Below, one piece after another: positions 143 to 51,587 of a stretch of 64,000 bases of DNA. Every line of letters begins with the position of its first letter. The first letter of the stretch is position 1. Both the position numbers and the translations under genes were made by a program. A model generated the notes under the pieces. That model was given only the letters and a program-made list of their open reading frames with translations. It had not been told where the DNA came from and did no database searches. The DNA is from an uncultured Candidatus Binatia bacterium (GTDB lineage Bacteria; Desulfobacterota; Binatia; Bin18). Where the stretch lies: the NCBI GenBank assembly GCA_965203745.1, contig CBDBDK010000001.1:780400-844399 (forward strand), given 5' to 3'.

Positions 143-2905
143 ATGGCCAGAGCCAACCAGACCCCGGAACAAGCTGCTCGCGAAAATATTGACAGCTTGC
201 TCACTCAGGCAGGCTGGGCGGTCCAAGACAAAAAGAGCGTCAACTTTAACGCGGGTCTCGGCCTTGCCATACGTGAATATCAAACCGATACTGGCCCGGC
301 CGACTACGTGCTCTTCATCGACCGGAAACCCGTCGGCGTGGTCGAGGCCAAGCCGGAACACTGGGGCCAGAAGATCACGACGGTTGAGGAGCAATCCGGG
401 CGCTACGCGTCCGCAAAACTCAAGTGGGTGAGTAACAGCCAGCCCTTACCCTTCGTGTACGAAAGCACCGGCGTACTCACCCGTTTCACCGACGGACGCG
501 ACCCAAGACCGCGCTCCCGCGAGGTGTTCAATTTTCCTCGGCCGGAGACCATGCAGAACTGGTACACCCGGTCGGCCACGCTCCGCGCACGGCTCCAGGC
601 GCTGCCGAGTTTAGACCCCACCGGATTGAGAGGGTGCCAGGTCAACGCCATCGAGCAGCTCGAAGCCTCCTTCAAAGCTGACCGCCCGCGCGCCCTCATT
701 CAAATGGCGACCGGCTCGGGCAAGACCTACACCGCCATCACCTCGATCTACCGGCTGCTCAAACACGCGGACGCCAGGCGCATCCTCTTTCTGGTGGATA
801 CCAAAAACCTGGGTGAACAGGCCGAGCAGGAATTCATGGCCTACGTGCCCGGTGACGACAACCGCAAGTTCACCGAGCTGTACAGCGTCCAGCGCCTCAC
901 CTCGTCCTTTGTCGCCAGGGATAGCCAGGTCTGCATCAGCACCATCCAGCGCATGTACTCGCTGCTGAAGGACCAGGAGCTGGACGAAGCTCTGGAGCAG
1001 ACCCACCCGGCGGAGACATTGCTCAAACAACCAACGCCGGTCGTCTACAACGCCAGGATTCCGCCCGAATTCTTTGACTTCATCATCATCGACGAATGCC
1101 ACCGCTCGATCTACAACCTGTGGCGTCAGGTTCTGGAATACTTCGACGCTTATCTCATCGGCCTGACCGCCACCCCGGACAACCGCACCTATGGCTTCTT
1201 CAAAACGAACGTCGTCAGCGAATACGACCATGAGCAGGCCGTCGCCGACGGTGTCAACGTCGGCAATGAAGTCTACGTCATCGATACGGAAAGAACCAGG
1301 CACGGCGGGCAACTCAGGGCCGAACAGCAGGTTGAAAAGCGCGAGCGCCTGACGCGCCGCAAGCGCTGGGAGATTCAGGACGAGGACCTCGCCTATACCG
1401 CCCAGGAGCTTGACCATGCCGTGGTCAACCCCGACCAGATTCGCACCGTCGTCCGTACCTTTCGCGACAAACTGCCGGAGATATTCCCCGGCCGCAGCGA
1501 AGTGCCCAAAACGCTTGTCTTCGCCAAGACCGACAGCCACGCCGACGACATCATCCAGACCGTACGCGAGGAATTCGCCCAAGGCAACGAGTTCTGCAAG
1601 AAGGTCACCTACAAGACCGCAGAAGACCCGAAATCCGTCCTGGCCCAGTTCCGCAACGACTACCACCCGCGCATCGCCGTGACCGTGGACATGATCGCCA
1701 CCGGCACCGATGTCAAGCCGCTCGAATGCCTGCTCTTCATGCGCGACGTGAGGAGCCGCAACTATTTCGAGCAGATGAAGGGCCGCGGCACCCGCACCCT
1801 CGACCATGACGATCTCAAGAAAGTCTCGCCCTCCGCGGTCAGCGGCAAGACCCACTATGTGATCGTGGACGCCGTCGGCGTCACCACATCGCTCAAGACC
1901 GCCAGCCAACCGCTCATCACCAAACCCTCCGTACCGCTCAAGGACCTCGCCATGGGCGTGATGATGGGCGCACACGACGAAGACACCGTGAGTTCCCTTG
2001 CCGGCCGTCTCGCCCGGCTCAACCACCAACTTGACCCCGCCGAGCAGGAACGTATCCGGGAAAAGACCGGCGGCATCGCACTCACGCAAATCGTCGGCAA
2101 TCTATTGGAAGCCATCGACCCCGACCGCATTCAGGAAAAGGCCCGTGCAATCGAGTCCGTGCCCGACGGTGCCGAGCCGTCACCGGCCGCACGCAAACAA
2201 GCCCAGGAACAGTTGGTCCGCGACGCCGCCGGCGTGTTCAACGGCGAGTTGATCGAGCTGATCGACTCGATTCGCCGCGACAAGGAGCAGACCATCGACC
2301 ACGACAGCCTGGACACCGTGCTGCGCGCCGAATGGGAAGGCGACGCACACGAGAACGCTGAAGCTATGGCGCGGGACTTCCGGCAGTATCTGGAAGCCAA
2401 TCGCGATGAAATCGAGGCCCTGACCATCTTCTACGCCCAACCGCACCGTCGCCGCGAGTTGACCTACGCCATGATCCGCGAGGTGTGCGACAGACTGAAG
2501 AACGACCAGCCCCGATTGTCTCCTTTGCGGGTCTGGCAGGCGTATGTCGTGCTGGATGAGTATAAGGGCAGCCAGCCGGTCAGCGAACTGACCGCGCTCG
2601 TGGCGTTGATTCGCCGCGTCTGCGGCATTGACGCGACAATTTCACCCTATGCGGAAACCGTGCGCCGCAATTTTCAGCAGTGGATCATGACGCACCACAG
2701 CGGCAGCGGAGAGAAGTTCAACGAGGAGCAGATGGACTGGCTGCGCATGATCCGCGACCACATCATCACCTCGTTTCATCTGGACCGCGACGATCTGGAC
2801 ATGGCTCCGTTCGACGGCAAGGGCGGCCTGGGGCAGATGTATAAGCTCTTCGGAGAGCGGATGGATAGTGTGATTGATGAGTTGAATGAGGCGTTGGCGG
2901 CGTGA
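143..2905 (+). CDS. hsdR: Type I restriction enzyme R subunit (HsdR, EcoEI-R-like C-terminus)
   Basis: 920-aa ORF. N-terminal restriction-enzyme region, helicase Walker A MATGSGKTYT and motif II IIIDECHRS. Long C-terminal domain typical of EcoEI-type R subunits. Operon context with hsdS and hsdM. Confidence 0.93.
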   Translation: MARANQTPEQAARENIDSLLTQAGWAVQDKKSVNFNAGLGLAIREYQTDTGPADYVLFIDRKPVGVVEAKPEHWGQKITTVEEQSGRYASAKLKWVSNSQPLPFVYESTGVLTRFTDGRDPRPRSREVFNFPRPETMQNWYTRSATLRARLQALPSLDPTGLRGCQVNAIEQLEASFKADRPRALIQMATGSGKTYTAITSIYRLLKHADARRILFLVDTKNLGEQAEQEFMAYVPGDDNRKFTELYSVQRLTSSFVARDSQVCISTIQRMYSLLKDQELDEALEQTHPAETLLKQPTPVVYNARIPPEFFDFIIIDECHRSIYNLWRQVLEYFDAYLIGLTATPDNRTYGFFKTNVVSEYDHEQAVADGVNVGNEVYVIDTERTRHGGQLRAEQQVEKRERLTRRKRWEIQDEDLAYTAQELDHAVVNPDQIRTVVRTFRDKLPEIFPGRSEVPKTLVFAKTDSHADDIIQTVREEFAQGNEFCKKVTYKTAEDPKSVLAQFRNDYHPRIAVTVDMIATGTDVKPLECLLFMRDVRSRNYFEQMKGRGTRTLDHDDLKKVSPSAVSGKTHYVIVDAVGVTTSLKTASQPLITKPSVPLKDLAMGVMMGAHDEDTVSSLAGRLARLNHQLDPAEQERIREKTGGIALTQIVGNLLEAIDPDRIQEKARAIESVPDGAEPSPAARKQAQEQLVRDAAGVFNGELIELIDSIRRDKEQTIDHDSLDTVLRAEWEGDAHENAEAMARDFRQYLEANRDEIEALTIFYAQPHRRRELTYAMIREVCDRLKNDQPRLSPLRVWQAYVVLDEYKGSQPVSELTALVALIRRVCGIDATISPYAETVRRNFQQWIMTHHSGSGEKFNEEQMDWLRMIRDHIITSFHLDRDDLDMAPFDGKGGLGQMYKLFGERMDSVIDELNEALAA

Positions 2906-3114
2906 AGGCAGAAGGGAGAAGGAAAAAGGAAGAAGTGGCGGACCTTCGGACTCGGACGAAGGAGTTTGCACTGCGGATCATTCGCCTTTACTCAGGTCTT
3001 CCCAAGCGGACCGAGGCTCAAGTAATAGGCAGACAAATTATTCGTTCTGGAACGTCTGTGGGGGCGAATTACCGGGAGGCGTATCGCGCGCGGAGCAAGG
3101 CGGAGTTCATCTCT
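2902..3114 (+). pseudogene. 5' fragment of a four-helix-bundle (23S rRNA intervening-sequence type) protein gene
   Basis: The first ~71 codons (..FALRIIRLYSGLPKRTEAQVIGRQIIRSGTSVGANYREAYRARSKAEFIS) look like this family. Similarity ends near 3114 and the ORF then reads through unrelated DNA. The GTG start overlaps the hsdR stop. Confidence 0.55.
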
Positions 3115-3341
3115 TCCTTCTGCCTTCCTCCTTTTGCCTTTTCAGACGTTTGCGAAGCGCGACGATCCGCTCAGCATTGGGGTTGTCTACGATCCGGCAG
3201 GAAAGCGCTGTCTCACCGCGCACATGGGCGAGCACTTCGCCCAGGGCTGTTTCAATCTCTTGGCCGATGTTGGTGTGTTCGTTCATTTGAAAGCAGCTTG
3301 CGAATGGCACGTTCATAGGTGCGGGTGAAGTACAGATGCAT
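3107..3341 (-). pseudogene. Remnant of a toxin-antitoxin pair (toxin reduced to 18 codons, HTH antitoxin N-terminal part only)
   Basis: MHLYFTRTYERAIRKLLS (toxin-like N-terminus) runs directly into MNEHTNIGQEIETALGEVLAHVRGETALSCRIVDNPNAERIVALRKRL (N-terminus typical of HigA/XRE-type antitoxins). Both are truncated. Confidence 0.4.
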
Positions 3342-3377
3342 GAATTGTCTATCATGTGGCATTGCCGCAGAGCGTGC

Positions 3378-3440
3378 AAGCTCTTCGGAGAGCGGATGGA
3401 TAGCGTCATTGACGAACTGAATGAGGCGTTGGCGGCGTAA
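3378..3440 (+). repeat. Duplicate of the last 63 nt of hsdR (second, diverged allele)
   Basis: 57/63 identical to 2843-2905. Five differences are synonymous (both encode KLFGERMDSVIDELNEALAA). The sixth changes the stop from TGA to TAA. This copy carries the TAATG overlap with the hsdS start. Confidence 0.9.
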
Positions 3441-4699
3441 TGGGACTTGAAGCTGCAAGAATCCCAGATGGCTGGGCTCATACATCGCTCGAAGCTGTGT
3501 GTCAGATTCTCGATTCCAGGCGTATCCCGTTAAACAGCAGCGAACGCTCGCGGCGTATCGCCGGTAAGTCCGCTGATGATCTCTACCCCTACTACGGCGC
3601 CACAGGTCAGGTCGGTGTGATTGACGACTTCATCTTCAACGGCGAGCACATTCTACTGGGCGAAGACGGCGCCCCATTTCTTGATCCTTTCAAGGTCAAA
3701 TCCTATCTAGTGAGTGGAAAATTTTGGGTCAACAATCATGCCCATATTCTCAGATCAACAGTCTCGAACAAATACATTTGTCATTACCTGAATCACGTTG
3801 ATTATTCAGATCACGTCACAGGAACAACCAGACTCAAGCTCACCCAAAATGCGCTCAAGAGTATTCCCATTTGTGTTGCGCCAGCAGCGGAGCAACACCG
3901 CATCGTCGCCAAGATTGAGGAACTGTTTTCCGAACTGGACAAGGGCATCGAAAGCCTGAAAACCGCTCAGACGCAACTCAAGGTCTATCGTCAGGCGGTG
4001 CTCAAGCACGCCTTCGAAGGCAAGCTCACGGCGCAGTGGCGCGAAGAGAATAAAGACAAGCTTGAGACGCCTGAGCAATTACTCGCTCGCATCAAGCAGG
4101 AGCGGGAGGCGCGCTACGAGCAGCAACTCCAGGAGTGGAAGGCTGCTGTAAAGGAATGGGAGGAGAGCGGTAAGTCAGGCAAGAAGCCAGCTAAGCCGAA
4201 GCGGCCACATGATGTCGCTCCACTCCAACATCGCGAGAAGGAAAAACTACCATCACTACCCCCGGAATGGGCGTTTAGCCGTATGGGTGTATATATCGGC
4301 CAGATTGAGGCCGGTAAGAGTTTCAAATGCCTTGAAACGGAACCTTCAGCCGATCAGGTCGGGGTCGCCAAAGTCAGTGCAGTGACTTGGGGAGAGTACG
4401 ACGAGACGGAAAGCAAGACATGTCTGGACGCCGACAAGATCAATGAGAACCTCTTCATTCGGGAAGGCGATTTCCTACTGAGCCGCGCGAACACTATCGA
4501 GTTGGTCGGCGCATCTGTAATCGCGAAGACCGTCACCAAACGGATCATGCTTAGCGACAAGACTCTACGTATCCATTTCACTCCGGAGGATCACCGCTTC
4601 TTCCTTTACTACCTGAGGAGCCCCTACGGTCGCACCGAGATAGAGGCTCGTTCAACCGGCAATCAGGAGAGTATGCGGAATATCGGACAAGTCGGGTAG
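3440..4699 (+). CDS. hsdS: Type I R-M specificity subunit HsdS, truncated by group II intron insertion (authentic exon part 3440-4690)
   Basis: TRD with WVNNHAHIL motif, and central conserved helix ..PICVAPAAEQHRIVAKIEELFSELDKGIESLKTAQTQLKVYRQAVLKHAF... A second TRD follows. The ORF stops at a TAG (4697-4699) that lies inside intron DNA. Confidence 0.88.
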   Translation: MGLEAARIPDGWAHTSLEAVCQILDSRRIPLNSSERSRRIAGKSADDLYPYYGATGQVGVIDDFIFNGEHILLGEDGAPFLDPFKVKSYLVSGKFWVNNHAHILRSTVSNKYICHYLNHVDYSDHVTGTTRLKLTQNALKSIPICVAPAAEQHRIVAKIEELFSELDKGIESLKTAQTQLKVYRQAVLKHAFEGKLTAQWREENKDKLETPEQLLARIKQEREARYEQQLQEWKAAVKEWEESGKSGKKPAKPKRPHDVAPLQHREKEKLPSLPPEWAFSRMGVYIGQIEAGKSFKCLETEPSADQVGVAKVSAVTWGEYDETESKTCLDADKINENLFIREGDFLLSRANTIELVGASVIAKTVTKRIMLSDKTLRIHFTPEDHRFFLYYLRSPYGRTEIEARSTGNQESMRNIGQVG

Positions 4700-4765
4700 G
4701 TCAGGCCCATTGCTGGGCCTTTCCCCCCTAAGAACCGTGCGTGCCACTTTCACGGCACACGGCTC
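4691..4765 (-). ncRNA. Group II intron domains V and VI
   Basis: Domain V is GAGCCGUGUGCCGUGAAAGUGGCACGCACGGUUC (34 nt, GAAA loop). Domain VI is GGGGGGAAAGGCCCAGCAAUGGGCCUGACCU-A-CCCGAC, with the bulged A 7 nt from the 3' end. Confidence 0.85.
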
Positions 4766-6441
4766 AAGCTCGTTGTAATTGCTCCACTGTGAATCTGTTG
4801 GTGACAGTATAAGTGTGTGAGTTTGAGATTAGATAGTGCATTGCTACCTCCTTCTGACCGTTTATGGATATGATGTACATGTAGCTCCTCACCGTTCGTG
4901 AGGTGTTGTTGACAGACTGGGCAATGGTTCCCTTGTCGTCGTGCCAGTTCTTTCCATCGGCTTTGGGGTAGTAGCTCTGTTTTTCTCTGCTCTCGTTCTT
5001 CCCAGTAGTCTTTTAAGTCTGGGTCATCTGGTGAAGAGTTGTAAGATACCAGAATGTGTCTCTTGATGGGTATCCATGAGAGTTTCGGTAAGTAGGCTTC
5101 AGGTGTTCCGAATACCCATTTATCTTTTGACCCTTTCTTAAATTGCCCGAAGTATCGCTTCACTCTCCATTTTATTCCCTTATTAGGGTGTGTTTGCCTG
5201 CACCATTGCATGCAATGTTCCCATATAAAGGCGTCCAGGTTGTGGAAGGTCGTTTTTGCTACGCTTCCTCTAAAATAGTTGCCCCATCCGCGTATAATCG
5301 GTTTTAATCTTTGGATGATTGCATAGGCGTTCCATCCTTTGAGATTATGCCATTCTTGGTTGAGTCGGTGTTTTATGGCTTTGACCGCTTTATTACTCGG
5401 AGTAATAAGGAGCTTCCATCCTGTTCTTGCTGCCTGGATTGGGTACTGTTTGATTGTGAATCCGAGAAAGTCGAATCCTTCCGAGATATGCCGAATATGG
5501 GTTTTCTCTGGTGAGAGTTCAAGTCCTCTATGTCCTAGCCATATGCGTATCTCTTCGAGTGCCTGTTTTGCTTCTTCTTTTGTTTCTGTACAGATAACAA
5601 AATCATCTGCATATCTCACAAGCGCTCGTGTACCGTTGAGGTATTTTCGTGTGGAGTATGTGACCCCTATTGCGCTTTCCATGCCGTGTAAGGCGATGTT
5701 GGCGAGTAACGGGGAGACGACTCCCCCCTGTGGGGTTCCTTCTTCGGGTTGGACCTTCTGTTGTTTTTCCATTATCCCTGCTTTTAACCATGCCTTGATG
5801 AGTTTCTGACCAGGAAAGCCCTGGATGGCTTCAAGGATGGTATGGTGTTGGATATGGTCGAAGGCTCCTGTGATGTCAGCATCCACAATCCACTTTTTAT
5901 TTCGATGTGGGCGGTAAATACTGTACAGTCGTGCTATGGCGTCGTGACAACTGCGTCCAGGTCGGAACCCATAAGAACAGGGCTCGAATTTGGCTTCCCA
6001 CTCCGGTTCTAAGGCATTCTTGACGATTGCCTGCATTACCCGGTCTCGAATGGTCGGGATGCCGAGGGGACGTTTCTTGCCGTTAGCCTTGGGAATATAG
6101 ACTCGTCTGACCGGCTGTGCTTTCCATGGCTCGTAGGTGGCAATTTCTTGCATGAGTGCAGTTCTAGCTGCCGGGGTTTTGACTATCACCTTGTCAACAC
6201 CTGGCGTGCTTCGTCCGGCGTTAATCTGCGTTACCCTTCGGATACTCGTCTCACGGTTGGCTGTGCATTTCAGCATCAGACGTTGCAGGGAACGGACCTT
6301 GCGGCGGTTCCCTTGCCGTGAAGCTCGAAAGATTCTCTGCCTCAGGTTGCGCACGATTTTGGCGTTTTCGCACCAGTCGATGCTATTCCAGTCACGCGCT
6401 ACAACCTCGCTGGCAGTTTCCTGTCTCTTCGCGTCAGTCAT
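4750..6441 (-). CDS. Group II intron-encoded protein (reverse transcriptase / maturase / HNH endonuclease)
   Basis: 563 aa. RT blocks RPLGIPTIRDRVMQ, GTPQGGVVSPLLANI and YADDFV. Maturase region RGWGNYF. C-terminal CPVCQ..HVHHI..SNLKLTHLYCHQQIH HNH motif. Confidence 0.95.
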   Translation of the reverse strand: MTDAKRQETASEVVARDWNSIDWCENAKIVRNLRQRIFRASRQGNRRKVRSLQRLMLKCTANRETSIRRVTQINAGRSTPGVDKVIVKTPAARTALMQEIATYEPWKAQPVRRVYIPKANGKKRPLGIPTIRDRVMQAIVKNALEPEWEAKFEPCSYGFRPGRSCHDAIARLYSIYRPHRNKKWIVDADITGAFDHIQHHTILEAIQGFPGQKLIKAWLKAGIMEKQQKVQPEEGTPQGGVVSPLLANIALHGMESAIGVTYSTRKYLNGTRALVRYADDFVICTETKEEAKQALEEIRIWLGHRGLELSPEKTHIRHISEGFDFLGFTIKQYPIQAARTGWKLLITPSNKAVKAIKHRLNQEWHNLKGWNAYAIIQRLKPIIRGWGNYFRGSVAKTTFHNLDAFIWEHCMQWCRQTHPNKGIKWRVKRYFGQFKKGSKDKWVFGTPEAYLPKLSWIPIKRHILVSYNSSPDDPDLKDYWEEREQRKTELLPQSRWKELARRQGNHCPVCQQHLTNGEELHVHHIHKRSEGGSNALSNLKLTHLYCHQQIHSGAITTSLSRVP

Positions 6442-6797
6442 AGTGTGCTCCCTTTACAAAGTTCTTTGGACAACGAACCAGCCCCACGTCAGCAGGCTTT
6501 CGCCTTGGGTATTGCCCTATCCAGTTGGTTATGTCATACGGTTGCCCGTATGTGAGAGGATGTATGAGAGACTATAATCCTGTGTATGAGCCAAAGCCGA
6601 AGCCTCAGCCGAGCAAACTCTGGTGGGTTTTTACCTGGCCAGTGTTTCTTATTGCTCTGACACTGATTCTTTGTCTTATTTACCTACTGTCGTAGGTATT
6701 TCCATCCTCTGCGTTTCCCGTTGCCTTTCGGCTACTGGCATTCGCTTCTTGGGGCGTCCTACACCCACTGAAGGATTCGGCCTTCCTTACGGTTGGC

Positions 6798-7229
6798 TTA
6801 CTCGTATCCGTCTGGATTTTTGGTAGGGTCTCTTTTGAAGAGGAATGGTCGGAGTATGATTTGCACTATTTTACACAGTTGTTCATGAGGAAACTTGATT
6901 GGTTCTGGTGTTGCTCCTGTGAGTACTACCAGACATCTCGCTGTTTCTTCTTCCCAGTCTGTTGTTATGGTGCAATTCTTGGATGGGTTTTCTATCTCTA
7001 CATCTATGCCTTCTGAGGTGAGTTTGAATTCGCACTTTTTCTCGTGTTGGCCTGAGACTGTGCGCCCAAGAAGGATGTTTGTACTTTCCCTTTTGTGTGG
7101 GTAGTATTTGAATTCTATTCCTTCTCGTTTTGCCTCGGAGAGTTCTTTGCGGTTCTCAATATCCTGTTCAACGTGTTTATTGAGTTCCTCAAAGAAGTAA
7201 GGCATGTTGCATTTTGCGTATTGTTCCAC
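6798..7229 (-). CDS. Hypothetical 143-aa protein encoded inside the 5' ribozyme half of the group II intron
   Basis: Uninterrupted ORF in the AT-richest part of the intron, where random ORFs of this length are unlikely. It lies on the same strand as the intron and has protein-like composition. No family recognised. Start uncertain (GTG at 7229 or ATG at 7205). Confidence 0.45.
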   Translation of the reverse strand: MEQYAKCNMPYFFEELNKHVEQDIENRKELSEAKREGIEFKYYPHKRESTNILLGRTVSGQHEKKCEFKLTSEGIDVEIENPSKNCTITTDWEEETARCLVVLTGATPEPIKFPHEQLCKIVQIILRPFLFKRDPTKNPDGYE

Positions 7230-7693
7230 CCAATTTTTATGGACTTCCTCTATCCTTCTTTTTTATATTTTTACCCTTGGTTTGTCCATACGTTTCTAAG
7301 ACTCCATTGGGGTTATCACGTTCCGCATAGAAAATATGACGATTGGGTTAGGTGCCCTCTTTACGCCGGAGACGAGGTGTACTCGAAAGGAACTAAAAGA
7401 CTTTCCTTTCCTTTACTCATATACCAATCACATATGAGCCTTTTATGTCTCGTTTCTTCTGTGTCAACCACCTTTCAGAAGTTCCTAGTAACGACGCTTG
7501 TGAGGATTCACTTTCGTTCACCTTACCAATCTTTACCTCTTGCCCTGGTTCGGGATGTGGTTTCCGTTCCCATTAGGCTTTCATCCCAGCTTCACACCCC
7601 CGGATTACTCCAAACGCATGTGGGAAGTGAGGAAAGCTTGTACACTAGCTTTAGTACCTAAGTACCTGTTTTCTATGCGACTTCGTGTCGCAC

Positions 7694-7996
7694 GATCGGA
7701 TCAAGGGTATAATCCTGCCCGTCTGCACCGAAGTTGAGCAGGCCGAGATCGTTCGCACCCTCAACGCCTGCCTTGAAGCCGCCGAGGCTCTGGAGGCCGA
7801 GATCGACGCTGCCTCCACCCGCGCCGATGCGCTCCGCCAATCAATCCTGAAAAAAGCTTTCTCCGGCCAACTCGTCCCGCAGGACCCACACGACGAACCG
7901 GCCTCGGTTCTTCTGGATCGAATCAGGGTCGAAAGAGAGAAGGCGGTGAAGAACAACCACTCCAAGAAAACAAAGAAGAGAAAGACGACCGCATGA
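7694..7996 (+). pseudogene. hsdS: hsdS 3' part (C-terminal conserved helix), separated from the 5' part by the intron
   Basis: DRIKGIILPVCTEVEQAEIVRTLNACLEAAEALEAEIDAASTRADALRQSILKKAFSGQLV. This is the distal conserved region of HsdS. It is in the same reading frame as 3440-4690 once 3003 nt are removed. Confidence 0.88.
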
Positions 7997-8027
7997 ATAC
8001 CGCTCTCAGTGTCTCCACAGTCTGGAG
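7993..8027 (+). repeat. Relic of the first 35 nt of hsdM, in ATGA overlap with the hsdS stop
   Basis: ATGAATACCGCTCTCAGTGTCTCCACAGTCTGGAG versus the hsdM start at 13202-13236 (30/35 identical). Confidence 0.8.
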
Positions 8028-8030
8028 ATA

Positions 8031-8072
8031 ACCTACCCCGCCACTAACGCGGCAGCCCTCCAAGGAGGGAAT
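8031..8072. repeat. REP family A unit (degenerate, reverse orientation)
   Basis: ACCTACCCCGCCACTAACGCGGCAGCCCTCCAAGGAGGGAAT matches the AACCCACCCCGCCGCT..GCGGCACCCCTCC..GGAGGGGAT consensus. Confidence 0.7.
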
Positions 8073-8198
8073 TATATACGATCTTACCCAAATGTCACTA
8101 AATATGTTGTTGTAAAGGGGCGACCACAACACAAAACTGGACTTTTGTTAATGGGAGAGCCTCCCCTTTTTCCTCTCCTTTTCATATGGAAGAGATGC

Positions 8199-8227
8199 TT
8201 GTCAAATAATAGGGAACAACGTATAAC
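8199..8227 (+). promoter_or_regulatory. Candidate sigma70-type promoter of the SIR2-like gene
   Basis: TTGTCA, a 17-nt spacer, then TATAAC. It lies about 30 nt upstream of the ATG at 8259. Sequence pattern only. Confidence 0.35.
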
Positions 8228-8258
8228 ACAGCCCCGATTTTACAAAAAAAGGGAACAT

Positions 8259-9320
8259 ATGATTCTCGTATTTGTTGGTGCGGGCGGCTCAGCCGCCGTG
8301 GACCCAAAGCAGTACCCGACGACCCTAGAATTTTTCAATCTTCTTCCAGACAGTATTACAACTAATACTTTGTTTACTTCAGTGAAGGGTTTTCTCACGG
8401 GGCCGAAAAAGAAAGAGAAGGGAACCATTGATATTGAGGATGTATTGGAAACCTTAAACGAACTCCAAGTGAATGGCCAAAGAGCAATTGATAAAACGAA
8501 GATTCTAGGATGGACCTTAGGAGGGGAACTAGGATTTATTAGCGGAGTCTCTTTTGATGCCCTTGCTCAGTCTATGGAGCAGTTGATTAAAACGCATGCC
8601 GCCCCACTTGCCTCCGAAATTCATAGGCAAGTGTATGATCTCTATGCAGAAGAGCCCGACCCCACTCAGTTGAAGGATTGGGTAAGTCTTCTTTCGGGAT
8701 TAGCAGAAATCGATCCCGCTATCGAAATCTTTACAACAAATTATGACCTCGTGTTGGAAAGCCTGATTCCACTGGTAAAACCAGATATAAAAACGGGCCG
8801 TGATTCCACCAGTGGTATTCAAACACGGCTCGATATCACCCCTTGGCTACTTTCCATGCCAGACGATCCGAGTCGTCCTAGTGGACTCCTCACTAAGCTC
8901 CATGGGTCGGTTGATTGGCAAAGGGGCAGGAAAGGAAAAATCAACATAAGCGACACCGACACCGGAAGTGACGATAAACATTGCATTCTCTATCCAGGCC
9001 ATAAAGGAGAACCGACTGAAGAGCCGTTCAAGGTGTTTCATGAATATTTTCGTCGGGTTATACGGTCCCGGACTCTATCCGCTGCCGTCTTTGTCGGGTT
9101 TGCTTTCCGAGATGAGTATATTAACTTCCTTCTGGCCGATCTTCCTAAAGATACTCCTACGGTTTTTGTAACCAAAGATAATATAATCCATCTTGATAGG
9201 AGTGGCCCCCCAACCGGTGCTCCTGCCGTCAACAGTTTTATACATATCTCAGCAGGCTTGACATCGCATACGCCCGAGCTATGCCTCGAATATTTAAGAG
9301 AGAATAAGCGTAAGAAGTAG
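8259..9320 (+). CDS. SIR2_2-like (sirtuin-fold, putative NADase) stand-alone protein
   Basis: 353 aa from ATG 8259 (purine-rich AAAGGGA just upstream). Motif order ILVFVGAGGS, FTTNYDLVLE, LTKLHGSVDW, VFVGFAFRDEYI. Visibly AT-richer than its flanks. The longer start at 8145 was rejected. Confidence 0.75.
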   Translation: MILVFVGAGGSAAVDPKQYPTTLEFFNLLPDSITTNTLFTSVKGFLTGPKKKEKGTIDIEDVLETLNELQVNGQRAIDKTKILGWTLGGELGFISGVSFDALAQSMEQLIKTHAAPLASEIHRQVYDLYAEEPDPTQLKDWVSLLSGLAEIDPAIEIFTTNYDLVLESLIPLVKPDIKTGRDSTSGIQTRLDITPWLLSMPDDPSRPSGLLTKLHGSVDWQRGRKGKINISDTDTGSDDKHCILYPGHKGEPTEEPFKVFHEYFRRVIRSRTLSAAVFVGFAFRDEYINFLLADLPKDTPTVFVTKDNIIHLDRSGPPTGAPAVNSFIHISAGLTSHTPELCLEYLRENKRKK

Positions 9321-9621
9321 TTTCATACCCTGCCCGTTTTGGGTATCCAGGTATATAAGTCCCTCCACGGAGGGGATAGAAGAAGTTCCTGTCTTCAGCA
9401 GGCGCCCCGACAGAGAGCGGGCACTGCTGGGAATGCAGGTATTGAAGAGAGGCCAAGGAGAGAATATATTCCGGCTCGACAGCAGGAGACGATATGAGCG
9501 AAACGAGGGCGGTGCCCACCGGGCATAGAACGCTGTTTCAGATGGCTGACTTTGAATTGGTGATTGGACCACCATTGTGCAAGGGCGCTGCCTGCGTCGC
9601 CCCTCATATCGGTCGTATAAG

Positions 9622-9747
9622 CCCCCAAATTACGTCTAAAAAGACAAATTACGGTTCAATACACCCCCCAATTACGCACAAAAAGGCATTTAACGGTTCA
9701 ATACGCCACCGAATTGTGCACAAAAAGACCCTTCATGGTTCAATAAG
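9622..9747 (+). repeat. Three tandem 42-bp direct repeats
   Basis: Units at 9622-9663, 9664-9705 and 9706-9747. They share the boxes AATTACGCACAAAAAGAC and ACGGTTCAATAC. Confidence 0.85.
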
Positions 9748-10142
9748 TTATTGATTTCATTGCATTCAGGTCAGAGACCCCTCCTATATTTTTTTCGGGA
9801 GGCGTTTGTTAGAGAAGAACAGGGTTTGATAGTAAGCGTTCCAATGGCACCCCGCAGACACGATACAACCGGGGCGCTCCCTTCTCCTCCCCGCTTGGGA
9901 CGGGTGAGGCGTATTGCCGCGTCAGCCGGGGAAGAGGGGGCAAAGGCCACGGCGGGCTGGCCGAAGAGGGGGGGGAGCCAGTGGCCGAGATTGATGGCGG
10001 CGCGCTTGGCGGCCAGTCGGGGCAACCAGCCCTGGGGGCTACGGGTGCCCGGCCAAGGCAAGCCTAGCCTAGCCTCGACACGCTCCTTCTACAGTGCTCC
10101 CTCATCTGCATCGCGCGTCTCGGAGGGGATCAAGAGGGATGT

Positions 10143-10328
10143 ATGACTACACAGCCCATCGTCCCCAAAGTCTGGAGCTTCTGCACCACCCTGCGCGATG
10201 ACGGGGTGAGCTATGGCGACTACCTGGAACAACTCACCTATCCGATCTTCCTCAAGATGGCCGACGAGTACGCCAAACCACCGTACAACCGTGATGTCGG
10301 CATCCCTGCCGAATACGACTGGAGCCCC
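10143..10328 (+). pseudogene. hsdM: 5' stump of a second hsdM allele (about 62 codons)
   Basis: MTTQPIVPKVWSFCTTLRDDGVSYGDYLEQLTYPIFLKMADEYAKPPYNRDVGIPAEYDW parallels resident HsdM residues 1-60. Similarity ends near 10328. Confidence 0.85.
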
Positions 10329-10359
10329 TTATTCGTGTCTTGGTGTGGCAGGCGTGGCG

Positions 10360-10653
10360 TCACACCGCTTTTGGGGCGACGGTGAGACGGACCCCGAGCG
10401 CCCCCAGCACCTTCATCACCGTGCCGATGCGGGGGTCGCGCTCGCCGGACAGCGCCTTGTACAGGCTGGGCCGGCCCAGGTGGGTTTCGTGGGCGACGGC
10501 GGTCATGCCCATAGCGCGTGCCACGGTGCCGACCGCCTTGACGAAAAATTCCGGGTCGTTTTCTTCGAGCGCGGCTTTCAAGTATTCGAGCCGGGCTTCG
10601 TCATCTCCCAAAAACTCGGCACTGTCCCACGGGGTATACGTTTCTTTTTCCAT
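10360..10653 (-). CDS. Addiction-module antidote protein (HTH antitoxin, HigA-related family)
   Basis: 97 aa. The segments DSAEFLGDDEARLEYLKAALEENDPEFFVKAVGTVARAMGMT..THLGRPSLYKALSGERDPRIGTVMKVLGALG are typical of the antidote partner of killer proteins. Confidence 0.8.
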   Translation of the reverse strand: MEKETYTPWDSAEFLGDDEARLEYLKAALEENDPEFFVKAVGTVARAMGMTAVAHETHLGRPSLYKALSGERDPRIGTVMKVLGALGVRLTVAPKAV

Positions 10654-10662
10654 GTCGCCTCC

Positions 10663-10946
10663 CTAGAGTGCGCGCGCCATGCGTTGCGCGCGGCGGATGT
10701 CCTGTTGTTGGCTCGTCTTATCGCCACCACACAGCAGGAGAACCACGGTCTTGTCCTGGATCGTGTAATAAACGCGATAGCCTTGGGCCACGTTGATCCG
10801 CAGCTCGCTGACCCCCTGGCCCACGCTCCGGTGGTCGCCAAAATTACCCGGTCTAGGCGCACCGCAATCCGCGCCTGTGCCTGACGGTCCCGCAGTGCTT
10901 TCATCCAGCGGCGGAAGGTCTCGCTCTGGATGACCGTATATGTCAT
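10663..10946 (-). pseudogene. Addiction-module killer protein (RelE/HigB-like), frameshifted
   Basis: MTYTVIQSETFRRWMKALRDRQAQARIAVRLDR continues in another frame as GNFGDHRSVGQGVSELRINVAQGYRVYYTIQDKTVVLLLCGGDKTSQQQDIRRAQRMARAL. The span is 284 nt, not a multiple of 3. The shift lies near 10846-10850. Confidence 0.75.
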
Positions 10947-10956
10947 ACCGAGAGTT

Positions 10957-10972
10957 GTATCCAATTGGATAC
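10957..10972. promoter_or_regulatory. Perfect 16-bp palindrome, candidate TA operator
   Basis: GTATCCAATTGGATAC, 10 nt upstream of the killer-gene start codon. Confidence 0.4.
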
Positions 10973-11105
10973 AGACGATCAAGGCTGAACGCGATGTCTG
11001 CCAGAACTTGAAACTGCGGGCCGGAGCAATCTGCGTAATATAAAGGATGAACACCGCCAACCGGCGCTTGCGGCCATCTTCCGAATACTGATATCGGGTG
11101 AATCC

Positions 11106-11354
11106 ATGAGCAAAGGGCTTGTCAGAACAGTGATTAGCCTGGATGACGAACAGAAAGCGTGGCTGGACCAGCAGGTCGCGTTGCGCCGCGTGTCCATGGC
11201 CGCGCTGATTCGCCAGGCGGTCAGCGAATTTCAGAGACGGGAACAGCGCGGCGCGGCCGTGTCGTTTCAAGAGGTGCTCAAGCAGACGGCGGACATCTGG
11301 CAGGGTGGGGACGGGCTTGGGTACCAGGAGCGTATTCGCCAGGAATGGCCGTGA
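11106..11354 (+). CDS. Ribbon-helix-helix (CopG-type) antitoxin-like protein, no cognate toxin adjacent
   Basis: 82 aa. VISLDDEQKAWLDQQVALRRVSMAALIRQAV is an RHH signature. Confidence 0.65.
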   Translation: MSKGLVRTVISLDDEQKAWLDQQVALRRVSMAALIRQAVSEFQRREQRGAAVSFQEVLKQTADIWQGGDGLGYQERIRQEWP

Positions 11355-11365
11355 GGGTCTGTACC

Positions 11366-11487
11366 ATCCCCTCTTGGGAGGGGTGGCCCGAAGGGCCGGG
11401 GTGGGTTCCTCCTCCGGTCGATTGTCTCCGCTCCTGGAGAGGGCAACCCACCCCGCCGCTGACGCGGCACCCCTCCAAGGAGGGGAT
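11366..11487. repeat. REP family A dimer (inverted pair, GGCCC-type plus CCGC-type units)
   Basis: ATCCCCTCTTGGGAGGGGTGGCCCGAAGGGCCGGGGTGGGTT, a 37-nt spacer, then AACCCACCCCGCCGCTGACGCGGCACCCCTCCAAGGAGGGGAT. Confidence 0.85.
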
Positions 11488-11499
11488 CAAGAAGGAAGT

Positions 11500-11658
11500 A
11501 TGACTACACAGCCCATCGTTTCCAAAGTCTGGAGCTTCTGCACCACCCTGCGTGACGAACCGACCTCGGTTCTTCTGGACCGAATCAGGGCCGAAAGAGA
11601 GAAGACAACGAAGAACAACCACGCCAAGAAAACAAGGAAGAGAAAGACGAGGGCATGA
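11500..11658 (+). pseudogene. Chimeric relic: hsdM allele-2 codons 1-19 fused to the last ~33 codons of an hsdS allele-2
   Basis: MTTQPIVSKVWSFCTTLRD joined to EPTSVLLDRIRAEREKTTKNNHAKKTRKRKTRA. Compare the HsdS end DEPASVLLDRIRVEREKAVKNNHSKKTKKRKTTA at 7888-7996. Confidence 0.85.
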
Positions 11659-13193
11659 CTGGCAAACTGCCCATCAACATCAACCACCTGCTTCTCCAGC
11701 GTACCATTGAAGGCGAGCGCGTCGAGTACAAGGCGGGTTGGAATCCGCAGAGCGTGCTGCACACCGTCTGCGCCTTCGCCAACGACTTCCACAATCTGGG
11801 TGGCGGTTACGTCGTCCTGGGCGTCAAGGAGCGCGACGGTCGCCCCGTGCTGCCGCCCAAGGGCATTCCGCCGGATTCCGTCGACGCGATCCAGAAGGAA
11901 CTGTTGAATCTGGGCAATTCGGCCATACAGCCCTATTACCACCCGCTTACGGGGACCTACGCTATTGACGGCCGGACCATACTCGTGCTGTGGGTACCCG
12001 GTGGCGAAACCCGCCCTTACAAAGCCAAAGTACATCTCACCAAAGGGCGCTCGGAGTGGGCCTACTTCGTCCGCAAACACACAAGCACCGTCCGTGCGAG
12101 AGGCCGGGATGAACGCGAGTTGCTCAGCTTGGCGGCTACTGTGCCCTTTGATGACAGGTATCGCCAGACGGCTTCGCTTGATGACCTGTCGCGTCGGCTT
12201 ATCCAAGAATTCCTGCGCAACATCGGCAGCGACCTCGCCGCTGAGGCAGCCGGTCTCTCGATTGAGAGCCTGGGCCAGCGCATGAACATTGTCGGCGGTC
12301 CTCCCGAAGCAATGTTCCCCAAGAACGCCGGCTTGCTGTTTTTCAACGACCGACCGCACGACTTCTTTCCGGCAACCCAGATTGACGTTGTCTGGTTCCC
12401 GGACGGCCCGGGCGGAGACCACTTCGAGGAGAAGGAGTTTCGTGGTCCACTGTCGATCATCCTCGGCGAGGCGATCAGCTACATCGGGCGGAACTACCTG
12501 AAGGAAACGGTTGTCAAGCATCCACACAAACCCGAAGCAGAGCGATTCTGGAACTTTCCGATTGGTGCCATCGAAGAGGCCCTGGTGAATGCGATTTATC
12601 ACCGCTCATACGAGGAACGGGAGCCGGTCGAGGTCCGCATTACCCCGGAAGAGTTGGTGGTCTTGAGCTTTCCCGGTGCCGACCGGTCCATCCGCATGGA
12701 AGATTTCAAGAACGGGCAAGCCGTCAGCCGTCGCTACCGCAATCGCCGCATTGGCGAGTTTCTCAAGGAACTCGAACTGGCCGAGGGCAGGTCAACCGGA
12801 GTCCCCAAGATTCTGCGAGCCATGCGGCAGAACGGCTCCCCGGAGCCGGTCTTTGAGAGCGACGAGGACCGCACCTGGTTTCTGGTCCGGCTGCCGGCGC
12901 ATGAACGGGCGTCACTTGGCGCAACCGCACATGAGACCACACATGAGGCCGAACATGTTACCGAACATGTTGAGCGCCTAATTACGGCCCTTACGAGAGA
13001 AATGAACCGCCCCCAGTTGCAGGATGCGCTAGGTGTGAATCACCGGCAACATTTCGTCGCGGCGTACCTCAGTCCTGCCCTCAAAGCAGGCCTGATCGAG
13101 ATGACCCTCCCGGACAAGCCGACCAGCCGGAACCAGCGTTACCGCCGCACGGCGGCCGGAGAGTCTTTGGCGCAAGAAATCAAAGAGAAGTAA
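11655..13193 (+). CDS. AlbA_2 (Schlafen-like) / HATPase_c_4 / wHTH protein (often annotated RecG-like or putative transcriptional regulator)
   Basis: 512 aa. N-terminal ERVEYKAGWNP..VCAFANDFHNLGGGYVVLGV. Central EEALVNAIYHRSY. C-terminal winged-helix-like tail. The ATG overlaps the stop of the upstream relic (GCATGA), taking the slot normally held by hsdM. Confidence 0.75.
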   Translation: MTGKLPININHLLLQRTIEGERVEYKAGWNPQSVLHTVCAFANDFHNLGGGYVVLGVKERDGRPVLPPKGIPPDSVDAIQKELLNLGNSAIQPYYHPLTGTYAIDGRTILVLWVPGGETRPYKAKVHLTKGRSEWAYFVRKHTSTVRARGRDERELLSLAATVPFDDRYRQTASLDDLSRRLIQEFLRNIGSDLAAEAAGLSIESLGQRMNIVGGPPEAMFPKNAGLLFFNDRPHDFFPATQIDVVWFPDGPGGDHFEEKEFRGPLSIILGEAISYIGRNYLKETVVKHPHKPEAERFWNFPIGAIEEALVNAIYHRSYEEREPVEVRITPEELVVLSFPGADRSIRMEDFKNGQAVSRRYRNRRIGEFLKELELAEGRSTGVPKILRAMRQNGSPEPVFESDEDRTWFLVRLPAHERASLGATAHETTHEAEHVTEHVERLITALTREMNRPQLQDALGVNHRQHFVAAYLSPALKAGLIEMTLPDKPTSRNQRYRRTAAGESLAQEIKEK

Positions 13194-13201
13194 GCCTACA
13201 T

Positions 13202-14686
13202 ATGAATACCGCCCCCATCGTCTCCAAAGTCTGGAGCTTCTGCACCACCCTGCGCGATGACGGGGTGAGCTATGGCGACTACCTGGAACAGCTCACCTAC
13301 CTGATCTTCCTCAAGATGGCCGACGAGTACGCCCAACCACTGCACAACCGCGATGTCGGCATCCCGGCCGAATATAACTGGCGGAGCCTGAAGTCGAAGA
13401 GTGGAGCGGAACTCGAAAGCCACTACGTCACCCTGCTTCGCGAACTCGGCACCAAAAAAGACATGTTGGGTCAGATTTTTACCAAGGCCCAGAACAAGAT
13501 TCAGGACCCGGCCAAGCTGTTCCGCCTTATCGATATGGTGGACGACACCGAATGGGTGAGCATGGGTGCCGACGTAAAAGGCGATATTTACGAAGGGCTG
13601 CTTGAAAAGAACGCCGAAGATACCAAGTCGGGCGCGGGCCAGTATTTCACGCCGCGCGCCCTCATCCGCGCGATAGTCGAATGCGTCCGGCCCGAACCGG
13701 GCAGACTCATTGCCGACCCGGCCTGCGGGACAGGCGGTTTCTTTCTGGCCGCCTACGACTTCATCAACAACTCGGACAACTTTAGGCTCGATAAACCGCA
13801 GAAGGCGTTCCTGAAGCACGAGGCATTTCACGGCAACGAGATCGTCGCCAACACGCGCCGGTTGTGCCTGATGAATATGTTCCTGCACAACATTGGTGAG
13901 ATAGACGGCGGCGCGCCCATTTCGTCAAACGATTCGCTGGTGGCCGATGCCGGTCAGCGCTTTGACTACGTGCTGGCGAACCCGCCTTTCGGCAAGAAGA
14001 GTTCCATGAGCTTCACCAACGAGGAGGGAGAACAGGAAAAAGAGGACCTGACCTATAACCGGCAGGACTTCTGGGCGACCACCTCGAACAAGCAGCTCAA
14101 TTTCGTGCAGCACATTCGCACCATGCTCAAGACCACCGGCCGTGCCGCCGTTGTCGTGCCGGACAACGTGCTGTTTGAAGGCGGTGCCGGCGAGACGATT
14201 CGCAAGAAGCTGCTGGACAACACCGACCTGCACACCATCCTGCGCCTGCCGACCGGTGTGTTCTACGCCCAAGGGGTCAAGGCCAACGTGATTTTCTTCG
14301 ACAACCACGAAGCCAGCCCGAATCCCTGGACGAAGCAGGTCTGGTACTACGACTACCGCACCAATATCCACCACACGCTCAAGAAAAAGCCCCTCCGCTT
14401 TGAAGACCTCCAGGATTTTATCCAGTGCTATCACCCGCAAAACCGTTGGGAGCGGACGGAAACCTGGGACGCGGAAGCCCACCCCAAGGGGCGGTGGCGA
14501 GTGTTCTCGTATGACGAGGTTCTCGCTCGGGATAAGACCAGCCTGGATATTTTCTGGCTCAAGGACAAAAGCCTGGCCGATCTCGATAATCTGCCTGAGC
14601 CGGACGAGCTGGCAGCCGAAATCATTGAAAACCTGGAGTCCGGGCTTGCCCGTTTTCGAGAGATTGTGACGGCGTTGGAGCGGTGA
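13202..14686 (+). CDS. hsdM: Type I R-M DNA methyltransferase subunit HsdM
   Basis: 494 aa. HsdM N-terminal domain, AdoMet motif ADPACGTGGF and catalytic NPPFG. Confidence 0.95.
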   Translation: MNTAPIVSKVWSFCTTLRDDGVSYGDYLEQLTYLIFLKMADEYAQPLHNRDVGIPAEYNWRSLKSKSGAELESHYVTLLRELGTKKDMLGQIFTKAQNKIQDPAKLFRLIDMVDDTEWVSMGADVKGDIYEGLLEKNAEDTKSGAGQYFTPRALIRAIVECVRPEPGRLIADPACGTGGFFLAAYDFINNSDNFRLDKPQKAFLKHEAFHGNEIVANTRRLCLMNMFLHNIGEIDGGAPISSNDSLVADAGQRFDYVLANPPFGKKSSMSFTNEEGEQEKEDLTYNRQDFWATTSNKQLNFVQHIRTMLKTTGRAAVVVPDNVLFEGGAGETIRKKLLDNTDLHTILRLPTGVFYAQGVKANVIFFDNHEASPNPWTKQVWYYDYRTNIHHTLKKKPLRFEDLQDFIQCYHPQNRWERTETWDAEAHPKGRWRVFSYDEVLARDKTSLDIFWLKDKSLADLDNLPEPDELAAEIIENLESGLARFREIVTALER

Positions 14687-14703
14687 GAAGAGAAGGGGCA
14701 GGA

Positions 14704-14745
14704 AACCCACCCCGCCGCTATGCGGCACCCCTCCGGGGAGGGGAT
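14704..14745. repeat. REP family A unit
   Basis: AACCCACCCCGCCGCTATGCGGCACCCCTCCGGGGAGGGGAT. Confidence 0.85.
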
Positions 14746-14801
14746 GGTGGGCGCCCATCTCGGAACTCTGTGCCCCCTCCGAGTGGAGGGGGGCTATGAA
14801 A

Positions 14802-14949
14802 CTAGAGCAAATAACGATGATGTGTAGCCGTCCGTCATTCCTGCGGAAGCAGGAATCCAGGTCTCCAGCCTCCCGGCCTCTGGATGCCGGATCACGTCCG
14901 GCATGACGCAAGCGTACTGGCACGGCTACAACGTATCGTGAAACGCGCT
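14802..14949 (+). repeat. MITE-like repeat family B, short copy
   Basis: CTAGAGCAAATAACGATG..CGTCATTCCTGCGGAAGCAGGAATCC..CCGGCATGACG..GGCTACAACGTATCGTGAAACGCGCT. A second, longer copy lies at 42374-42570. Confidence 0.8.
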
Positions 14950-15334
14950 AATGCGTTGGCAGGGGAGAAAAGTGGGCGCTGACGATTTTCCACTGGCCGT
15001 CTTCTTTGCCGAAGACGAGGGTGGTCCGTCCGTTTAAGGTGCTGACCTGACCGTCCTTCCCCACCGAGGTAAACGTATCATACCCATTTGCTACGCCGGC
15101 ACTGTCTCCGACCATTCGGCAGGACAGTTGACGCAGGCCGGAGTTGGCCGAGGCAATGCCTGCCATCGCCCCTCGCAAAAAATCAGCGAACTCCGCTTTG
15201 CTGTCAAACCGATAGGGAACGTGATCAATTACCTCAAGGTCCTCGGACAGCATGCCAATCGCCTTTTCCACGTCCAATTGCGTAAAGGCGTCAAAGAAGC
15301 CCCTGGCCGCGGCTTCGATTTCCTGTGCACTCAT
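14948..15334 (-). CDS. NTF2-like / SnoaL-like (DUF4440-type) protein
   Basis: 128 aa. ARGFFDAFTQLDVEKAIGMLSEDLEV..GRTTLVFGKEDGQWKIVSAHFS is the typical pattern. Confidence 0.65.
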   Translation of the reverse strand: MSAQEIEAAARGFFDAFTQLDVEKAIGMLSEDLEVIDHVPYRFDSKAEFADFLRGAMAGIASANSGLRQLSCRMVGDSAGVANGYDTFTSVGKDGQVSTLNGRTTLVFGKEDGQWKIVSAHFSPLPTH

Positions 15335-16858: not shown

Positions 16859-16865
16859 GGCAGGA

Positions 16866-51513: not shown

Positions 51514-51587
51514 CCGAATATCTAGTCAGACTCTTACACGTCCTCGCACAAATAGTCAAACCACCCGATAGTGGGTCGGTTTGAAAA

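Follow-up and report, generated by a model that had tools for sequence, protein, structure and literature searches.

A stand-alone SIR2_2 gene in a rearranged type I restriction-modification locus of a Candidatus Binatia bacterium and its recurrent linkage to restriction-modification genes

The SIR2 gene and the type I locus that holds it

We have analyzed a stretch of 64,000 nucleotides (the window) from the genome of an uncultured Candidatus Binatia bacterium (contig CBDBDK010000001.1). At 8259-9320, on the forward strand, there is an intact gene that codes for a protein of 353 amino acids (aa) with a single SIR2_2 domain (SIR2 from here on), and its surroundings are a type I restriction-modification (R-M) locus with the order R-S-M, heavily rearranged. 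What is new here is a minimal SIR2 family that has no partner, is uncharacterised and is recurrently linked to R-M genes. To our knowledge, the bacterial SIR2 immune effectors characterised so far all work with a sensor, be it HerA, SLOG, a prokaryotic Argonaute (pAgo), STAND or a repeat domain.

In the list of open reading frames (ORFs) the gene appears at 8145-9320 (+) with a TTG start and 391 aa. The ATG at 8259 gives a protein of exactly 353 aa that begins MILVFVGAGGS, has the purine-rich stretch AAAAAGGGAAC just upstream and corresponds to a start Met common to all the homologues in an alignment of 30 sequences. The four motifs listed in a preliminary description of this DNA are all there and in the order claimed: ILVFVGAGGS (residues 2-11), TTNYD (159-163), KLHGS (213-217) and VGFAFRDEYI (279-288). 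Over the 30 sequences G7, G9, S11, T159, T160, N161, Y162, D163, L214, H215, G216 and S217 are invariant, and K213 nearly so. The Asn and His proposed as candidate catalytic residues are thus kept throughout (N161 and H215), and we take them to be the catalytic pair by analogy with ThsA and DSR2. The protein matched the Pfam family SIR2_2 (PF13289) with 43.1 bits (E=5.8e-11), the cut-off being 24.5. Besides, 21 PADLOC models matched the protein, 19 SIR2 or Aga_SIR2 models plus ThsA below 0.01. At the top were Aga_SIR2 (8.5e-21), a model that covers the SIR2 core alone (residues 112-294), and SIR2 (6.6e-20), while the ThsA match (E=0.0023) extended across 36 residues only.

The AlphaFold2 (AF2) model built from the family alignment (pLDDT 85, pTM 0.85) predicts a sirtuin fold of Rossmann type that has a helical subdomain and lacks a zinc module. 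Actually, the only cysteines are C243 and C342, so that there is no CxxC zinc module; its absence is typical of SIR2_2 NADases, a pattern tied to NADase rather than deacylase activity (PMC12700824). A superposition on the SIR2 cores of ThsA and DSR2 had been proposed. In the Foldseek search against the PDB, the best 36 matches were all Sir2 proteins of Sir2-HerA (Nezha), with TM values of 0.5-0.6 (0.55-0.60 at the top) and 16-20% identity, followed by DSR2, which was a weak match (E=2.1e-4, TMt 0.17), human FAM118B (rank 38, also weak) and the canonical sirtuins SIRT1-3. The family profile searched against the PDB pointed to the same proteins (8w9l, which is PsSIR2, 2.5e-18; 8yhx, 5.3e-17; 8j4u, 1.1e-10), and the TTNYD and LHGS of the family align with those of PsSIR2 (8w9l). 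By analogy with these relatives the product is a predicted NAD+ glycohydrolase.

The gene is clearly richer in AT than its environment, as had been noticed, with 46.0% GC compared to 58.6% in the flanks, and the ratio of nonsynonymous to synonymous changes (dN/dS) against its closest homologue was 0.44. The promoter of its own that had been attributed to it, TTGTCA-17-TATAAC, did not hold up equally well. The string is present at 8199-8227, but a consensus promoter scan did not report it and found three promoter-like sites where 2.1 +/- 1.3 were expected by chance; with the final T of the -10 hexamer missing and no excess over chance in the scan, this promoter is unsupported. The features found along the locus were the following (positions are those of the window).

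143-2905 (+), hsdR, 920 aa, EcoAI/EcoEI type, apparently intact
2902-3318 (+), four-helix-bundle gene (23S_rRNA_IVP / TIGR02436), between hsdR and hsdS
3440-4690 (+), 5' part of hsdS, 417 codons before the intron
4691-7693 (-), group II intron, about 3003 bp, complete-looking, antisense in hsdS
7694-7996 (+), 3' part of hsdS, 101 codons, C-terminal conserved region
7993-8027 (+), hsdM 5' remnant, 35 nt, with 86% identity to the start of the true hsdM and an ATG that overlaps the hsdS stop
8030-8072, palindromic element resembling repetitive extragenic palindromes (REP-like), upstream of SIR2
8259-9320 (+), stand-alone SIR2_2 gene (Pfam, AF2, Foldseek)
9360-9375, REP-like hairpin, 40 nt past the SIR2 stop
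9622-9745, tandem repeat of 42 bp, 300 nt beyond SIR2, in about 2.6-3 copies with 78% matches
10143-10322 (+), hsdM 5' fragment of a second allele, 181 nt, with 91% identity to the true hsdM and a ribosome-binding site (RBS) region before it
10340-10944 (-), toxin-antitoxin (TA) pair, toxin frameshifted, intact TIGR02684 antidote at 10360-10653
11106-11354 (+), ribbon-helix-helix (RHH; CopG-like) antitoxin-like ORF, 82 aa, read from the sequence, no model match
11359-11487, REP elements, further copies
11500-11658 (+), hsdM 5' fragment (59 nt) fused to a duplicate of the hsdS 3' end (105 nt); its stop overlaps the start of the next gene
11655-13193 (+), AlbA_2/Schlafen - HATPase_c_4 - Fic-like_C gene, 512 aa, cargo directly upstream of hsdM
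13202-14686 (+), hsdM, 494 aa, apparently intact

The preliminary description had placed SIR2 in the gap between hsdS and hsdM, a position like that of prrC. It is true that SIR2 lies 3' of hsdS, as prrC does, and starts 262 nt past the hsdS stop (7996). However, the hsdS gene is split by an intron, and the TA pair, the RHH gene and the AlbA_2/Fic-like_C gene separate SIR2 from the intact hsdM, which only begins at 13202. The intron contains a reverse transcriptase/maturase/HNH ORF (4750-6441), an Rfam domain V-VI (4691-4767) and a GTGCG 5' end at 7693. The two hsdS pieces join in frame across it (...NIGQ / DRIKGIILPV...). Its antisense orientation prevents its splicing from the hsdS mRNA, leaving HsdS truncated or split, and the assembly of the R-M complex of the window may be abnormal.

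The rest of the locus bears the marks of exchange. The hsdM 5' end is present four times, whole or as a fragment, and belongs to two allele types (7993-8027, 10143-10322, 11500-11558 and the one starting at 13202), and the hsdS 3' end is present twice (7892-7996 and 11554-11658). Together they indicate repeated recombination at the S/M junction, with exchange of blocks of cargo. After the SIR2 block come an RBS region and 181 nt of a foreign hsdM, suggesting that SIR2 was already located upstream of an hsdM gene in the donor. The AlbA_2/Fic-like_C gene is probably the original embedded gene of this hsd locus. A REP-like palindrome, CCCCTCCNNGGAGGGG, is found in 17 copies over the window when 0.03 are expected (among others at 13-55, 9360-9375, 11368-11485, 14728-14743, 41844 and 50518-61396). 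Inverted copies bound the whole hsd locus (37-77 against 14706-14746, 90% complementary), and copies appear at the boundaries of the cargo blocks, including both sides of SIR2, where the hairpin at 9360-9375 is a possible terminator or cassette boundary.

The 42-bp repeat downstream of SIR2, which had been considered as a possible trigger, has no other copy in the window, and none of the homologous loci has anything comparable; this role is unsupported. Rfam gave no meaningful match to it, just one chance-level hit (E=0.18) that falls inside the SIR2 ORF. Two ORFs in the same area, 9751-10146 (131 aa) and 9494-9754 (86 aa), had no family match or homologue at other loci and were treated as non-coding. 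At the other end of the locus, a 66-nt duplication of the hsdR 3' end (2843-2908 and 3378-3443, 89% identical) brackets the 23S_rRNA_IVP gene. The corresponding slot in the R-M operons of Binatia type holds PDDEXK_3/GxxExxY, and both families are known from rRNA intervening sequences.

The SIR2 family and its neighbourhoods

A search for relatives of SIR2 gave 498 clusters. Most of the proteins had 335-370 aa, and a minority (450-600 aa) carried a C-terminal TPR array. The matches in genomes corresponded to metagenome-assembled genomes (MAGs) of Binatia, Latescibacterota and Chloroflexota and to one acidobacterium. Among 2.9 million viral contigs there were only two distant relatives, with 26-27% identity, and a phage origin of SIR2 was discarded on these grounds. 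In order to describe the neighbourhoods we used 21 independent loci with usable flanks, found by peptide patterns and nearly all of them from MAGs or metagenome contigs.

In nine of these 21 loci SIR2 is, or formerly was, in linkage with R-M genes that share its strand in every case and represent three R-M architectures, although horizontal transfer of the whole operon lowers the independence of the linked loci. The most common arrangement (the R/MS operon) consists of an HsdR-like protein of 837 aa, a PDDEXK_3 protein (GxxExxY), a fused methylase-specificity protein (MS) of about 835 aa and SIR2. It is complete in five loci from three phyla (L002, L003=L053, L005=L054, L008 and L058/59), the one in L008 being without PDDEXK_3, and in the two loci with called genes (L053 and L054) the gap from MS to SIR2 was 44-61 nt. 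A relic, L018, preserves the R-M genes of this operon and a SIR2 fragment of 34 codons only. The second architecture is the classical three-subunit type I of the window, whose subunits are approximately 26-28% identical to those of the R/MS operon. The third appears in L007, where a type IIG restriction-methylase of 1027 aa begins 10 nt after SIR2, that is, with SIR2 directly 5' of it. In the five complete R/MS operons and in the window SIR2 sits directly 3' of the specificity module.

In a neighbour-joining tree the R-M-linked loci fell in three clades. A genome carries a handful of R-M methylases per some 4000 genes, so that the probability of adjacency by chance is roughly estimated as well below 1%, and even three independent associations are far above expectation. 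The family is strongly enriched beside R-M genes, in agreement with the enrichment that a survey of homologues had been proposed to look for. Four further SIR2 proteins may belong here too, since they come from contigs that coincide in length with contigs bearing HsdR homologues of the R/MS type. The R protein of the R/MS operon was 73-98% identical across Binatia, Latescibacterota, Chloroflexota and Nitrospirota. Its HsdR family comprises at least 8000 clusters, against 498 for SIR2, and the best 120 listed were all at least 80% identical. Regardless of SIR2, this two-gene type I-like R-M system (R of 837 aa plus MS of about 835 aa; L053 4414-9956, and also L002, L005, L008, L059 and L142-L144) is extremely widespread.

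The linkage is not general. No adjacent R-M genes were detected in 12 of the 21 loci (approximately 57%), by tblastn with few queries and limited hidden Markov model (HMM) scans. The closest three homologues (67%, 54% and 52% identity) each stand alone in an environment of metabolic genes. Some of the loci devoid of R-M had defence-type neighbours (PDC-S58, AAA_15+DUF3226, ApeA, a caspase-like gene and, on the other strand, a type IIG-like methylase), and TA genes were among the neighbours of SIR2 elsewhere. A region present in three Binatia genomes was especially informative. In the syntenic loci L138, L139 and L140/141 an ORF of 36 codons that corresponds to the N-terminus of HsdR lies just before SIR2. 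Comparison at the DNA level of L139 with L143, which occupies the same hotspot, revealed reciprocal alleles: L143 has kept R, PDDEXK_3 and MS (the latter with an internal deletion) and has no SIR2, while L139 has the first 64 nt of hsdR followed by SIR2, the homology resuming at the downstream HicB gene. SIR2 has gained C-terminal TPR units in this group, one in L138 and several in L140, and the dN/dS between the orthologues L004 and L010, both without R-M, was 0.31. These comparisons show that a Binatia lineage lost nearly all of the R-M operon, with about 32-35 codons of hsdR left, kept SIR2 under purifying selection in at least three genomes and later acquired the TPR repeats.

The slot that SIR2 occupies is also filled by other genes. 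In three loci sampled without regard to SIR2, the position after MS was taken by a PIN_4 gene (L142), by HicB and unrelated genes (L143) and by two small unknown genes (L144), while the slot between R and MS held PDDEXK_3, HicAB or nothing. The PIN_4 protein of L142 (13694-14554, 286 aa) comes directly after the fused MS, in the usual place of SIR2, and suggests that interchangeable toxic effectors use that position. Altogether, SIR2 is an accessory of R-M operons and not a core component, and the coupling is not obligatory.

We have also looked for a partner or sensor beside SIR2. In agreement with what had been reported from the sequence, no SLOG, TIR, APAZ/Piwi (Argonaute), HerA or STAND domain was found, fused or adjacent, among the window genes between 143 and 18668. 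The gene maps of 11 homologous loci had no recurrent neighbour and no HerA/DUF87-type ATPase, Ago, TIR or SLOG gene, which speaks against a partner that has simply been deleted here. HerA, pAgo, TIR, SLOG and STAND partners were therefore rejected. A protein of 427-428 aa does recur downstream of SIR2 in three loci of Binatia type (L139 11750-13033, L053 13636-14922 and L059 11681-12964; 84-92% identity). It matched no Pfam or PADLOC model and, absent from the window and from L002, L005, L008 and L050-L052, it was discarded as an obligate partner.

The variation within the family was considerable. In each of 17 homologous loci, and also in the window, the GC content of SIR2 was about 5-18 points under that of the flanks. 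When comparing L003 with L059, the 5' part of the R-M operon was 97% identical and the downstream region 95%, while SIR2 was only 75% identical and the target recognition domain (TRD) region could not be aligned. Again, between L051 and L052 the flanks were 96-98% identical and SIR2 85%. Over the comparisons made within the family, the dN/dS values were between 0.23 and 0.61. The DNA similarity between the window and its closest homologue, L050, begins exactly at the ATG and stops inside the ORF; no promoter, repeat tract or mobile-element ends are common to both, and conserved cassette flanks were discarded. These patterns depict what appears to be a mobile, fast-evolving accessory module with population genetics similar to those of defence genes.

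Known systems and rival explanations

SIR2 does not have the defining features of Sir2-HerA, Thoeris, SPARSA, DSR or Avs5, since the partner or fused sensor that each of them needs is missing in our case. The nearest is Sir2-HerA (Nezha; PDB 8sub, 8su9, 8j4u, 8w9l, 8wld and 8yhx), which gave the best profile and fold matches and has the same kind of single-domain SIR2_2 protein (about 340-430 aa) with the TTNYD and LHGS aligned, no zinc module and, as predicted for ours, NAD+ depletion. However, identity is only 16-20%, no HerA gene is adjacent in the window (143-18668) or in the 11 mapped loci, and the protein stays below the cut-off of the SIR2_antiphage equivalog. DSR2, ThsA, SPARSA and Avs5 share with it the SIR2_2 catalytic core and the expected depletion of NAD+. 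Thoeris (ThsA/ThsB) differs from the single 353-aa SIR2 domain by the SLOG or Macro domain fused in ThsA and by a TIR gene, of which there is none nearby, and SPARSA by the APAZ, here neither fused nor accompanied by a Piwi/APAZ gene. DSR1 and DSR2 are proteins of about 1000 aa with a C-terminal repeat sensor (a HEAT-like C-terminal domain), compared to 353 aa, and Avs5 has a STAND NTPase domain that is missing here, some relatives of SIR2 having TPR alone directly after the SIR2 domain. Human FAM118A/B offers the likeness of a SIR2_2 protein of about 350 aa, without sensor and regulated by self-assembly (PMC12700824), although it belongs to a distant vertebrate clade and serves as a precedent for assembly-based control solely.

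Regarding position, the closest parallel is PrrC (EcoprrI), a toxic effector whose gene follows hsdS directly, on the same strand and inside a type I hsd operon, with the notion of a backup layer of abortive infection behind restriction. PrrC is an ABC-ATPase and anticodon nuclease almost exclusively embedded in hsd loci (Payne et al., 2024), while SIR2 is R-M-linked in approximately 40% of its loci. In Ronin the effector is genetically tied to HsdM/HsdS: RonA is a membrane peptide of 61 aa, and its overexpression alone is lethal unless HsdMS is co-expressed (Silas et al., 2023, bioRxiv). Unlike the situation here, hsdR is absent in Ronin, and SIR2 is evidently tolerated without R-M genes. The guarded effector considered below takes from Ronin the logic of uncaging by anti-restriction proteins. 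That type I R-M, BREX and DISARM loci can harbour embedded defence genes has already been described, for example TgvAB in VPI-2 of Vibrio cholerae (Payne et al., 2024). SIR2 resembles such cargo as an independent defence gene located between hsd genes and inherited with them, but unlike the cargo of this "guilt-by-embedding" approach it matches no PADLOC candidate (PDC) model. No SIR2 is mentioned in the main text or the available supplements of Payne et al. (2024), and in the literature searched we found no specific description of SIR2 embedded in or coupled to R-M.

We favor, with a probability of roughly 0.55, that SIR2 is an autonomous NAD-depleting effector of abortive infection carried as swappable cargo of R-M operons. 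Once activated, the SIR2_2 enzyme would hydrolyse NAD+ and the phage infection would be aborted. Activation could depend on its own assembly state or oligomerisation, or on the direct sensing of a phage product, recognised perhaps through the helical subdomain or the C-terminal region, which is extended by TPR in some relatives. Its preferred place as last gene of R-M operons, right behind the specificity gene or domain, would provide co-transfer and co-transcription, in keeping with the embedding described by Payne et al. (2024). In the window, SIR2 would have arrived by recombination at the hsdS/hsdM junction, and the type I locus would have become mosaic and partly broken since then. The analysis shows that the gene is intact, has the SIR2_2 fold and conserved motifs, lacks a partner and is linked to R-M genes but separable from them; the NADase activity, the defence role and the mode of activation are inferred by analogy with other SIR2_2 proteins. 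Several points weigh against this proposal. A SIR2 of 353 aa with no sensor would still have to detect the infection in some way. The 21 loci are a small sample, retrieved by patterns and nearly all from MAGs or metagenome contigs. The NCBIfam SIR2_antiphage equivalog (NF042942) was not reached (27.6 bits with a cut-off of 500), none of the PDC models was matched and the promoter at 8199-8227 is weak. Finally, the slot 3' of the specificity module, found in two unrelated type I families, is narrower than the general clustering of defence islands and could reflect physical interaction with HsdS/HsdM.

This last point leads to the rival that deserves most attention, namely that SIR2 is a NADase analogue of PrrC and Ronin guarded by the R-M system. 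SIR2 would be bound inactive on HsdM/HsdS or MS; a phage anti-restriction protein similar to Ocr, ArdA or Stp would disable the R-M complex, SIR2 would be released and NAD+ depleted. Solitary members would depend on an R-M complex elsewhere in the genome, or on TPR as a replacement sensor, and the gain of TPR in a lineage without R-M genes is consistent with the latter. The same-strand linkage in nine of 21 loci, present or former, argues for this idea. So does the position directly after the specificity module in five complete operons, one relic and the window, over two type I families only about 26-28% identical, with the type IIG of L007 as a third architecture. Besides, hypervariability is common to SIR2 and the neighbouring TRD region in operons otherwise 97% identical, and PrrC-EcoprrI and RonA-HsdMS are precedents. 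On the other hand, approximately 57% of the loci have no adjacent R-M genes, the closest three homologues included, when PrrC is almost exclusively embedded; SIR2 was kept under purifying selection after the deletion of R-M; very few R-M loci of the R/MS family contain SIR2; and the hsdS of the window is disrupted. We consider this guarding possible but improbable. A more explicit version looks doubtful. In it, SIR2 would be attached to the core for specificity and methylation in three kinds of enzyme (type I, split type I-like and type IIG) and would deplete NAD+ upon anti-restriction, and its R-M-less descendants would use TPR. The effector coupled to R-M of the preliminary description is therefore retained as far as the linkage goes (nine of 21 loci), but not as a necessary coupling, given the solitary closest homologues and the retention of SIR2 after R-M loss. 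The surrounding R-M complex as its trigger is unsupported, as SIR2, unlike RonA, which is lethal alone, persists without R-M; the same follows from the dN/dS of 0.31 after R-M deletion, the PIN_4 and other genes in the slot and the split hsdS.

The other two explanations have much less in their favor than autonomous cargo. SIR2 might do no work in defence here, either as a silent relic or as a non-immune SIR2_2 enzyme, for example one that modifies proteins or nucleic acids with NAD. The degenerate locus (split hsdS, frameshifted toxin, gene fragments), the unsupported promoter and the homologues located among metabolic genes would fit. We find it unlikely, however, as the ORF is intact with all the family-invariant residues kept, the dN/dS against the closest homologue is 0.44, there is no zinc module for a deacylase chemistry, and the patchy distribution, low GC and turnover of alleles are typical of defence genes. 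Very unlikely in our opinion is that SIR2 belongs to an incomplete system, inert alone, with a HerA-like ATPase or other scaffold supplied in trans or deleted here. It is true that the closest solved relatives act only in complex with HerA, that this region of the window is patchy, with deletions and pseudogenes, and that the 427-aa protein recurs in three Binatia loci. But the family has no recurrent partner, the 427-aa gene being missing from the window and six other loci as indicated above; none of the 11 gene maps has a HerA/DUF87-type ATPase beside SIR2; and the Sir2-HerA pairs described are adjacent partners in an operon.

Significance of a putative SIR2 effector without a partner

A bare SIR2 of about 350 aa, conserved and at the same time fast-evolving, raises the question of how a NADase without a sensor is kept off and switched on. 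The three kinds of R-M operon and the alleles of the Binatia hotspot (R-M without SIR2, SIR2 without R-M and SIR2 with TPR) are natural material for paired tests, and they bear on whether abortive-infection effectors other than PrrC and Ronin can use R-M systems to sense infection. If the guarding were true, SIR2 would stand beside PrrC and Ronin as their NADase counterpart, and no earlier SIR2 effector would have had an R-M enzyme as its sensor. If SIR2 is autonomous, it would be a compact single-gene system of NAD depletion from poorly studied soil phyla, and it would illustrate as well the embedding route by which defence genes spread.

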